DNA of 64,000 nt. Source: Candidatus Thorarchaeota archaeon (GTDB taxonomy: Archaea > Asgardarchaeota > Thorarchaeia > Thorarchaeales > Thorarchaeaceae). Below the pieces are notes generated by a model that was not told where the DNA came from, made no database searches, and worked only from the letters and a program-made list of their open reading frames with translations. The stretch lies in NCBI GenBank assembly GCA_048882325.1, contig JBHLRS010000011.1, positions 1-64,000 of the forward strand, in the 5' to 3' direction. Positions 4,496-6,620 of this stretch are shown piece after piece; within the stretch, counting starts at the first letter, position 1, and the number at the start of each line of letters is the position of its first letter. Both the position numbers and the translations under genes were made by a program.

Positions 4496-5593
4496 TTAGC
4501 TGCTTCTCTTTCCCAACAGAAACTCCTCAATCCATCTCTCAGCCCTATACATTGTGGTTGGTACAGGTGGCATCTTAAATCCATAAGCTGAGATTGACTC
4601 AAGTGAACCCGAGAGGCCTCTCCTCAAAGCAAGCTTTGTACCTCTGATGGCATCCATGAGAATTGGACCTGCATTGGGACCATCAGTGACCTCCATTCGT
4701 ATGTCAATCTTAATGGGTGCTCCACCAAACTGACGTCCATTGATATAGAAGTATGAATCCCTCGCGTTGTCCATAAAGTCCACGAAGTCTGAGGATCCTG
4801 CAACCAATGGAGCATCGTATGGTAAGTCCTGACTAATAGCTTCGCTCTTTACTCCACGTTTCCTCATTCTTCCTCTATAATGAGAGTCAAGTGACTCAGC
4901 ACCACCACCAACGTCTAGCTGATAGCTTTTATCCACTTTCACCCCTCTTGACACAAGAAGTTGGAGAATATTCCGGTGGAGTACTGTTGAGCCAAGTTGA
5001 TCCTGAATGTCATCACCGACTAGTGGTAATTCCTTCTCCTCGAACCTCTTGCTCCATTCCGGGTCTGAAGCTATTGGAATTGGTGTCCCATTGATGTATG
5101 CACAACCAGCCTCGAGTGCGGCGTTAGCATAGAACTTGGTTGCCTTCTCTGCTGAACCAGGAATCAGGTTAATGAGAATCTCCGCTCCAGAGTCATTTAG
5201 GACTTTAACAACATCAGCTTCCTTTTCTGATGAAACTTTTACGAGAGCTCTTAGCATGTCATCTACACCATCAAGTTCCTGTCCTTTCATCACCTTGATT
5301 CCGGTGCTAGGTACTTCGGAGAAACGCATTACATTGTTAGGTTTGGCAAAGATAGCCTCTGAAAGATCAAATCCAACTTTGGTGTCAGCCACATCAAAGG
5401 CTGCTACAAACTGGATGTCCTTGACGTGAAATCCTGCAAAATCAGGATGATTGAGACCAATCAACTCTTCGTCGGACTTTGCACTCTTGTAGAACTCCAC
5501 ACCCTGTACAAGAGCACTTGCACAGTTGCCAACTCCAACAATTGCGACCTTTATTCCGTTCAAATGTGCCACCTCAGGCTCTAGTCCTGCCAC
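4496..5593 (-). CDS. ino1: Myo-inositol-1-phosphate synthase family protein (divergent)
   Basis: KVAIVGVGNCASALVQG, VAAFDV, GDD..Q.G.T..HR, D.PN, FK.PP. Confidence 0.85.
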   Translation of the reverse strand: MAGLEPEVAHLNGIKVAIVGVGNCASALVQGVEFYKSAKSDEELIGLNHPDFAGFHVKDIQFVAAFDVADTKVGFDLSEAIFAKPNNVMRFSEVPSTGIKVMKGQELDGVDDMLRALVKVSSEKEADVVKVLNDSGAEILINLIPGSAEKATKFYANAALEAGCAYINGTPIPIASDPEWSKRFEEKELPLVGDDIQDQLGSTVLHRNILQLLVSRGVKVDKSYQLDVGGGAESLDSHYRGRMRKRGVKSEAISQDLPYDAPLVAGSSDFVDFMDNARDSYFYINGRQFGGAPIKIDIRMEVTDGPNAGPILMDAIRGTKLALRRGLSGSLESISAYGFKMPPVPTTMYRAERWIEEFLLGKRSS

Positions 5594-5692
5594 AACTGGA
5601 GAATTTCTTATAAGTTATTCTATGAGTATAGAATAGTTGGACATTTTAACCATGGGGGAAGCACTTATGTTGGTCTTTTACATACAATAATT

Positions 5693-5941
5693 TGGACGAT
5701 TGGTCGGACGCCCCATTGCTCTACGCATCGTCGAAAAGTCGTGGGAACGATGCGACCGCGTTGCAATGGCGTATACGAATTATCCATCTGCAGGGAAATT
5801 CGTGCTCTCACCCCCGAGGGTTCAGAGAAGTGCCTTAGCATCGTGAGGAACGGAGCGCCACTCATGTTCAAAATAACAAAAGAGGGTGGACCTCGAGCCC
5901 GCAAAATCGGGCACCAAGTCTTAGGTGTCCACAATCGTCCA
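5693..5941 (+). ncRNA. Candidate structured non-coding RNA (closing stem plus about six hairpins), family unknown
   Basis: Perfect 10-bp terminal stem 5693-5702/5932-5941; internal hairpins; G-U pairs favour + strand; lies in a 526-bp gap with no credible protein. Confidence 0.55.
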
Positions 5942-6119
5942 CCTAATTTTGCAAATTCACTGATGAGCTAAGAGTTTAAAGGGGATTGTTCCACCACGAA
6001 GAGTAGCAGTGCCCTCAATATTTAGTCGAATCACAAGCTCCAGAGTTCCAGGCACAGCTTTGCGATCCCTGAGGAAGATTCTACTTTTGAAGACCTGCAA
6101 TTTGAAGACGTGAGAGATC

Positions 6120-6620
6120 ATGGGATATCAAGAGAGAGAGCCGATTGAGGCTCAGATTTCAGAACTAAAGCCTAGAATGAAGAGTGTCAACATTTCATTC
6201 AAGGTGATTGAGAAAGGTGAAGTCAGGGAAGTAACTTCCAGAGCTGACGGAGAGCAACACCGTGTTTGTGATACGGTTGTTGGCGATAGCACTGGTCTTG
6301 TGACAGTCCCATTATGGGACACTTCAATTGATGAAATCGAGGCGGAGAAGACTTACCGTCTTGAGAACGGTTACACAACCCTGTTTCAGGGCCATCTTAG
6401 ACTCAACATTGGTCGATATGGTACTCTGAAGGAAGCTGAAGAGGCCATTGAAGAGGTCAACAATGAAGTTGACATGAGCGAGCAAGAACATGAGCGGAGA
6501 CCACGTTACGGTGGTGGCGGCCGAGGTTATGGAGGTCGAGACCGTCGTGGTGGCGGTGGTTACGGCAGCAGGGACCGTCGTGGTGGCGGTGGCTATCGCG
6601 ACAGAAGCCGAGGCTACTAA
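6120..6620 (+). CDS. ssb: Single OB-fold single-stranded nucleic acid binding protein with Gly/Arg/Tyr-rich tail
   Basis: ISELKP..V.I..KV...VGDSTG...LW...IE...ENGY...FQG.LRLNIGRYG matches crenarchaeal-type SSB; RGG/GY tail. Confidence 0.85.
   Translation: MGYQEREPIEAQISELKPRMKSVNISFKVIEKGEVREVTSRADGEQHRVCDTVVGDSTGLVTVPLWDTSIDEIEAEKTYRLENGYTTLFQGHLRLNIGRYGTLKEAEEAIEEVNNEVDMSEQEHERRPRYGGGGRGYGGRDRRGGGGYGSRDRRGGGGYRDRSRGY
6540..6592 (+). repeat. 33-bp-period coding repeat (RDRRGGGGY)
   Basis: GACCGTCGTGGTGGCGGTGG occurs at 6540 and 6573. Confidence 0.8.

Follow-up and report, generated by a model that had tools for sequence, protein, structure and literature searches.

A structured noncoding RNA gene absent from Rfam and divergent from ino1 across most of one Thorarchaeota family

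The forward strand of the 64,000-nucleotide stretch of Thorarchaeota DNA analysed here (the window) carries, at positions 5693 to 5943, a free-standing gene for a structured noncoding RNA (ncRNA) whose family is absent from Rfam, and we are highly confident that it represents a genuine new family of structured ncRNAs. Across most of one Thorarchaeota family (f1) this gene is a vertically inherited single copy that occupies a fixed spot, divergent from ino1. The novelty claimed is at the level of the RNA family and does not cover function, for which the most likely mechanism, offered here tentatively, would be that of an RNA scaffold in a lineage-specific ribonucleoprotein (RNP). The original prediction of a novel structured ncRNA at this position was borne out by the lack of any Rfam match, by conservation and covariation among relatives, and by the single-copy nature of the gene. 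The gene and its candidate transcription signals are as follows.

5664–5671, + strand: candidate TATA-type promoter element CTTATGTT, about 23–30 nt upstream of the first G of the 5' helix
5681–5689, + strand: a further conserved block rich in A and T, CATACAATA, between about −14 and −5 relative to GGACG
5693–5943, + strand: RNA gene, about 251 nt (216–257 nt in relatives)
5944–5950, + strand: T-rich run TAATTTT, a likely archaeal terminator

In the alignment of relatives, the limits of conservation coincide with positions 5693 and 5943. Upstream, the motif RCTTAT(G/A/C)T or TTTAATTG is found at a constant distance from GGACG (about 26–33 nt) in 24 loci belonging to 15 genera, and on the other side a pyrimidine- or T-rich run comes immediately 3' of CGUCCACC / CGUCCNCC in all loci examined. 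Such an arrangement is typical of an archaeal TATA promoter and oligo-T terminator, and transcription of this RNA would be driven by its own TATA promoter, from a start placed by the position of that element, and would end at the T-run. The hammerhead-core word CUGAUGAG occurs just past the T-run, at window positions 5960–5967; this is probably a chance occurrence, since the flank is not conserved among relatives.

RNAfold assigns the + strand −98.1 kcal/mol; dinucleotide shuffles reach −75.8 ± 5.1, which corresponds to z = −4.40, and none of 200 shuffles was as stable. The opposite strand folds with nearly equal stability (z = −4.09) into a poorly defined ensemble. What fixes the + strand as that of the RNA is the composition of the consensus pairs, because cells with G-U exceed those with A-C by 197 to 78. 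Folding of the family alignment gives −90.2 on the + strand versus −79.4 on the − strand, and the promoter-like and terminator-like blocks also lie on the +, all in agreement with the strand originally proposed.

Comparative folding supplied the consensus structure. From 21 sequences of the window's genus RNAalifold derived 61 pairs, and compensatory changes occur in 14 of these; ribosum-RNAalifold applied to 38 sequences, from 38 species across the whole family, gave 12 helices comprising 62 pairs. Double changes, with both sides of the pair altered, are present in 51 of these 62 consensus pairs. Pairing is possible in 86.1% of the cells, versus 75.2% in shuffles and 38–46% when the partners were slid by 1–3 columns, and shuffles reached none of five measures in 500 attempts. 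The elements of the consensus are listed below in window coordinates.

5694–5712, + strand: 5' strand of the terminal helix, with P1 GGACGAUUG and P2 GGACGCC; partner 5924–5940
5718–5722, + strand: long-range helix PA, GCUCU paired with GGAGC at 5852–5856 (ribosum-RNAalifold)
5724–5754, + strand: hairpin H1, CGCAUCG/CGAUGCG (5724–5730 with 5748–5754); double changes in 7 of 7 pairs
5757–5771, + strand: irregular arm X, paired with 5831–5845 and bearing hairpins C and D; double changes in 8 of 8 pairs
5775–5803, + strand: hairpin C, GAAU-R-UCC/GGR-R-AUUC (5775–5785 with 5794–5803); 96.5% of cells pair
5805–5829, + strand: hairpin D, CUCUC-ACC...GGU-UCA-GAGAG (5805–5813 with 5818–5829), with an invariant 3-nt UCA bulge
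5863–5881, + strand: conserved single-stranded AYGUUCA, then an A-rich linker
5882–5894, + strand: mini-hairpin, or hub, GAGG-GUGGA-CCUC (5882–5885 with 5891–5894; RNAalifold); 85.5% of cells pair
5897–5912, + strand: variable hairpin GCCC/GGGC (consensus pairs 5898–5900 with 5909–5911), a stem with double changes
5913–5922, + strand: joining strand ACCAAGUCUU, conserved
5924–5943, + strand: 3' strand of the terminal helix and conserved unpaired tail ACC, from comparative pairing

In the consensus fold, the terminal helix P1–P3 brings both ends of the RNA together and closes a central junction. The GGACG/CGUCC pairing of P1 is near-invariant, yet both of its sides have changed together on three independent occasions (to GGAUG/CAUCC, GGGCG/CGCCC, and GGACA/UGUCC), and almost every one of the 38 sequences has NCC or NCU as its 3' tail. 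A 5' domain is closed by PA (GCUCY/RGAGC) and contains H1 plus the irregular arm, which is tipped by hairpins C and D. PA had been missed in the original prediction; 91% of its cells pair, its changes include GCUCG/CGAGC and GCUUC/GGGGC, and it supplants the local stems CCAUUGC/GCAAUGG and UCGU/ACGG. The H1 loop GUCGUGGGAA is invariant within the genus only, and in arm X the pairings are 5757–5760 with 5842–5845 and 5768–5771 with 5831–5834. The purine-purine mismatch of hairpin C is G.G in 27 of the 38 sequences, A.A in 5, and G.A in 3, while the letters of the UCA bulge in hairpin D are kept in 36–38 of the 38. One genus, g27, has lost hairpin D altogether (loci L197 and L200). The 3' domain would be made up of the AYGUUCA strand, the A-rich linker, the GAGG-GUGGA-CCUC mini-hairpin, the variable hairpin, and the strand ACCAAGUC.

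All nine stems of the original prediction were confirmed in the sequence, and most of them reappear in the RNAfold structure. They comprise a terminal stem TGGACGATTG/CAATCGTCCA (5693–5702/5932–5941) continued by GGACGCC/GGTGTCC, then CCATTGC/GCAATGG, CGCATCGT/ACGATGCG, TACGAATT/AATTCGTG, TCTC-ACCC/GGGT-GAGA, and TCGT-GAGGA-ACGG, and finally two hairpins with the same CAAAAU loop, TGTT-CAAAAT-AACA (5865–5878) and GCCCG-CAAAAT-CGGGC (5897–5912). Among relatives, the terminal helix, CGCAUCG, GAAU..AUUC, CUCUC-ACC/GGU-GAGAG, and GCCC/GGGC proved to be conserved, but three others did not. CCATTGC/GCAATGG pairs in just 8–19 of the 38 sequences, and TCGT/ACGG was rejected as a local stem, belonging instead to the long-range helix. 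Of the 21 genus sequences, no more than 10 have the first CAAAAU hairpin; the second differs in loop sequence or length in most species, and its GCCC/GGGC stem is absent from three genomes of the window's genus (G024, G007, and G015; loci L018, L019, and L020). The two identical loops are thus real in the window's species but are not conserved, and the twinning is a coincidence of that species because the first hairpin is confined to those 10 sequences and the loop of the second is variable. The proposal of repeated protein-binding loops acting as a sponge had been built on these two non-conserved loops and is not supported.

The 3' third of the molecule offers several competing pairings that center on the hub GGGUGGACCUC (5884–5894), which is near-invariant in most genera and could, by complementarity, pair with CCACUC, GUUCA, its own GAGG, GUCU, or the 3'-terminal GUCCACC. 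Counted on the alignment, hub pairings with CCACUC, GUCU, and the 3' tail show no covariation; the pairing with GUUCA was seen in single-sequence folds only and was left out of the counts. Several candidate pairings were rejected. The CCACUC/GAGGGUGG helix returned by RNAalifold at genus level was not retained family-wide, and a duplex between GGUGGAC and the terminal GUCCACC is contradicted by the failure of the hub to track the three compensatory changes in P1. A pseudoknot of GGUG/CACC plus GAC/GUC has no informative variation, and GUUCA/UGGAC together with GAGG/CCUC would, by our reasoning, be mutually exclusive, leaving a connecting loop of zero length. In genera g15, g18, g21, and g26 the place of the hub is taken by an ordinary 5–8-bp helix that bears the variable hairpin. 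A hub with multiple possible partners would be as much in keeping with a conformational switch as with a static scaffold.

The distribution of the RNA is that of a single-copy gene of one lineage. A 301-nt query has a single match in the 3.6-Mb genome from which it comes (G000), where no paralogues with GGACG...CGUCCNCC ends are found elsewhere, and BLAST gave matches in 21 of 24 same-genus species at 70–95% identity. Two covariance models, R1 and R2, span the central domain only (the central 122 nt for R1). Of the order's 87 genomes, 66 had a single R1 match each; these represent 15 of the 17 genera of family f1, and the sole genome of family f2 had no match. R2, built from 34 sequences covering the whole family, matched 23 of 26 f1 genomes, and in 125 genomes from 26 other Asgard families its only matches were at E > 0.01. 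Four weak R2 matches outside f1 were inspected and dismissed as chance, as they lie inside protein-coding genes, whose translations we read as glycoside hydrolase, pyrB, and others. A pattern scan of metagenomes added 13 further members, confirmed by the model at 64–118 bits; three pattern matches on viral contigs received no confirmation from the model, and a scan of genome contigs with a loose pattern returned chance matches except for one partial archaeal match (L068). On the question of dispersed copies of the kind left by a miniature transposable element (MITE), the single copy in G000 and the one model match per genome speak for a unique gene.

Second partial copies were seen in two metagenome-assembled genomes (MAGs), at or near contig ends (G020:C292:22–138 and G093:C101:4–91), and strain mixture or bin contamination is the more likely source of these than true duplication. 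Most of the genomes are incomplete MAGs, and statements of absence apply to the assemblies searched. In genus g23 the RNA was found neither by a filter-free scan of the loci nor by a more sensitive scan of whole genomes; ino1 there directly adjoins ccg, and the ssb genes are elsewhere. A 20.6-bit match in this genus that resembles hairpin C falls in an apparent TnpB-like ORF and was discarded. The RNA is dispensable for the class, because both g23 and f2 manage without it.

In the window the RNA gene is flanked on one side by an ino1-type gene (4496–5593, − strand) and on the other by a gene (6120–6620, + strand) for an OB-fold protein of 166 aa that ends in an RGG tail, a layout that we take, by comparison with the Sulfolobus SSB, to be that of a crenarchaeal-type SSB. 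The divergent ino1 is the constant neighbor, 95–330 nt away in most loci, and no other gene is a constant partner, those inserted beside the RNA varying by genus. The ssb gene, which in the window starts 177 nt downstream of the RNA on the same strand, has this place in about 9 of 29 examined loci, and some species lack it there even within the same genus; in the remaining loci the RNA converges on ccg-glcD. The presence or absence of ssb between the RNA and ccg can be followed through the window (6120–6620) and loci L016, L019, and L185–L193, and ssb looks like a gene that either entered a stable ino1-ccg-glcD region or was lost from it. A TTTAAAG box near 5976 (in the interval 5975–6119), about 140 nt upstream of the ssb start codon, points to a long leader for ssb or else to a wrongly placed start.

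The arrangement in the window could be that of a cis-acting leader, a riboswitch or attenuator governing the ssb gene that follows on the same strand. This is extremely unlikely given the T-run that follows the RNA and a next gene that in about two thirds of the loci is the convergent ccg; synteny contradicts a leader because a convergent ccg leaves nothing downstream to regulate, and the RNA cannot be one since the downstream gene differs between loci. The RNA presumably acts in trans. The same adjacency to ssb underlies the original model in which the CAAAAU loops form a sponge or scaffold for the RGG-tailed SSB. Beyond the two loops and the neighboring gene in the window's species, this model can draw on the mismatch and 3-nt bulge, which resemble sites for arginine-rich peptides such as those in HIV RRE and TAR and which serve as a lead only. 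We nevertheless consider it highly improbable, with one CAAAAU hairpin confined to 10 close relatives and the other variable in its loop and missing in three species, and the postulated partnership with the OB-fold protein finds no support in synteny, given the scarcity of ssb at these loci and the several ssb paralogues that g23 keeps elsewhere in the genome without having the RNA. A weak version, in which the SSB tail might dock on the RNA, is retained as a lead only.

Between ino1 and the RNA promoter, at window positions 5618–5633, lies a 16-bp palindrome, TTCTATGAGTATAGAA (TTYTAT-N4-ATAGAA), which is kept before ino1 in many genera, including the RNA-less g23 and f2, and which looks like an ino1 operator. 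The adjacency of RNA and ino1 may merely reflect a stable region and is no proof of a functional tie, because the ino1-palindrome-ccg-glcD region is equally stable in g23, and the palindrome is present in f2, without the RNA. These observations bear on a further possibility, that the RNA is a trans-acting conformational switch or sensor, co-regulated with ino1 and responding to a ligand such as inositol phosphate. The RNA is always divergent from ino1 and shares with it the intergenic region holding this conserved palindrome, and the hub has several mutually exclusive complements, all of them conserved. Such a switch seems improbable to us, however, as the alternative pairings that were counted show no covariation, no ligand is indicated, and both the palindrome and the ino1-ccg-glcD order persist where the RNA does not.

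Searches against known RNA classes were negative. Across the whole window, Rfam 15 gave 0 matches at gathering score, and a local search of Rfam at E ≤ 10 returned only a chance match to isrK at 13.7 bits (the isrK gathering score is 50). ARAGORN found no tRNA or tmRNA gene in the window, and the archaeal RNase P and SRP models gave no match to the candidate, in keeping with the original statement that it bears no signature of RNase P, SRP, or tRNA. The RNase P RNA of this genome (RF00373; G000:C3:141896–142234, 164.6 bits), the S domain of its SRP RNA (RF01857; G000:C25:45216–45362, locus L035, 50.5 bits), and its 5S rRNA (RF00001; G000:C46:8286–8404, 66.5 bits) were all located, and because all three lie on other contigs the candidate is none of them. 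Contig C25 ends within the SRP RNA gene, so that the S domain alone is assembled. One further match to the archaeal RNase P model (G000:C5:8936–9065, locus L032; 25 bits, E = 4e-5) falls in apparently coding sequence and was set aside as chance.

Other RNA roles and a coding function were addressed in turn. A search for Ro60/TROVE (PF05731) gave matches in control genomes and none in G000, whose completeness is 93%; a Y-RNA-like role is disfavored because this gene was not found. By eye, the conserved columns of alignments A1 and A4 hold no box C/D (RUGAUGA/CUGA) or H/ACA boxes, and the ACA at 5930–5932 of the window's species is not conserved. On inspection the terminal helix does not form a bulge-helix-bulge (BHB) motif, having a 3x1 or 2x1 internal loop and unpaired flanks. 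There is no conserved reading frame, with stops in every frame and a longest ORF that shifts strand and frame between species; in the genus alignment, 251 of 264 gap runs have a length that is no multiple of 3, and diversity by codon position is flat (0.17/0.22/0.22). The size and long terminal helix of the molecule do recall SRP RNA, but with the true housekeeping RNAs elsewhere, an empty ARAGORN result, no frame, and a single copy, it is scarcely credible that the gene encodes a divergent housekeeping RNA (SRP, RNase P, 5S, or tRNA-like) or a small protein, or that it is a mobile repeat.

The pattern of conservation gives the best indication of how the RNA might work. Invariant letters are found in the mismatch, the bulge, the loops, and the junction strands, and the helices between them covary freely. 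The variable helices (H1, arm X, and the GCCC hairpin) would hold the shape of the molecule, and the near-invariant features that do not covary would be contact sites for one or more proteins or for another RNA, the putative contacts being the end helix GGACG/CGUCC together with the NCC tail, the hairpin C mismatch, the UCA bulge, and the GUGGA loop. We favor a scaffold because the invariant letters sit in features that proteins read. Arginine-rich peptides classically dock on homopurine pairs and on bulges of 3 nt, as in HIV RRE and TAR. The homopurine mismatch of hairpin C switches between G.G and A.A, much as the G.G of HIV-1 RRE IIB can be replaced by A.A, and hairpin D keeps a 3-nt pyrimidine-rich bulge like that of HIV TAR; both are analogies rather than homology, with no relation in sequence.

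A more ambitious reading, which we think unlikely, would place the RNA at the core of an Asgard-specific machine, either as a new ribozyme or in an RNP that docks arginine-rich proteins while its hub switches partners. In the RNP version the mismatch, the UCA bulge, and the GUGGA loop would dock proteins, possibly including the RGG tail of the SSB. Taken as a ribozyme in its own right, with the junction strands and the GGGUGGACCUC hub as an active site, the RNA would cleave, ligate, or modify itself or another RNA. A molecule of about 250 nt with 12 helices, two multi-helix junctions, and a large number of invariant unpaired nucleotides would be in keeping with catalysis, and bacterial RNAs this large and complex have often turned out to be catalytic or to belong to large RNPs, but no Rfam ribozyme family was matched, and hairpin D can be deleted (g27) and the hub replaced (g15, g18, g21, and g26), which is unusual for an active site and makes this an improbable function. 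The two conserved unpaired strands of 7–10 nt could instead be seeds, ACCAAGUCUU or AYGUUCA, of an antisense base-pairing sRNA. That function is very unlikely for an RNA that is far bigger and more structured than known base-pairing sRNAs: the genome shows no enrichment of reverse complements of the conserved motifs, and duplex energies with the ino1 start region are mostly no better than those of shuffles, at sites that differ between loci.

As a candidate scaffold, the Thorarchaeota RNA can be set beside two groups of known RNAs, its closest counterparts. Like the orphan ncRNAs that comparative genomics has revealed in bacteria (OLE, the raiA motif, and two larger ones, ROOL and GOLLD), it is stand-alone, usually single-copy, and lineage-restricted, with many covarying helices and invariant unpaired nucleotides; these RNAs too had no known role at discovery. 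All four are in Rfam and none of them matches it, and unlike them it is archaeal, about 250 nt long, provided with a TATA-type promoter and a T-run, and restricted to one Thorarchaeota family. The archaeal SRP (RF01857) and RNase P (RF00373) RNAs are likewise 200–350 nt long, end in a long helix, contain multi-helix junctions, are present in one copy per genome, and serve as scaffolds for proteins, the role that we infer for the Thorarchaeota RNA. Read against the consensus motifs of these RNAs, its alignment lacks both the GNAR-loop helix 6 and helix 8 motifs of SRP RNA and the P4/CR-I to CR-V motifs of RNase P RNA, and unlike these two RNAs it is not universal even within its class.

A full-text search of the literature found nothing on structured ncRNAs of Thorarchaeota. 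In archaea, few conserved RNAs of comparable size and complexity lack an assigned family, and RNAs of comparable kind have often turned out to be ribozymes or RNP cores. The present work provides a defined sequence of about 250 nt with a tested secondary structure and candidate contact sites, which can be used for structural work, probing, and pull-downs, initially without a cultured host, and the loss of hairpin D in g27 and the losses of GCCC/GGGC are natural deletion variants that amount to ready-made structure-function mutants. The host lineage belongs to the Asgard archaea, the closest known relatives of eukaryotes, and to our knowledge their RNA biology is almost unexplored.
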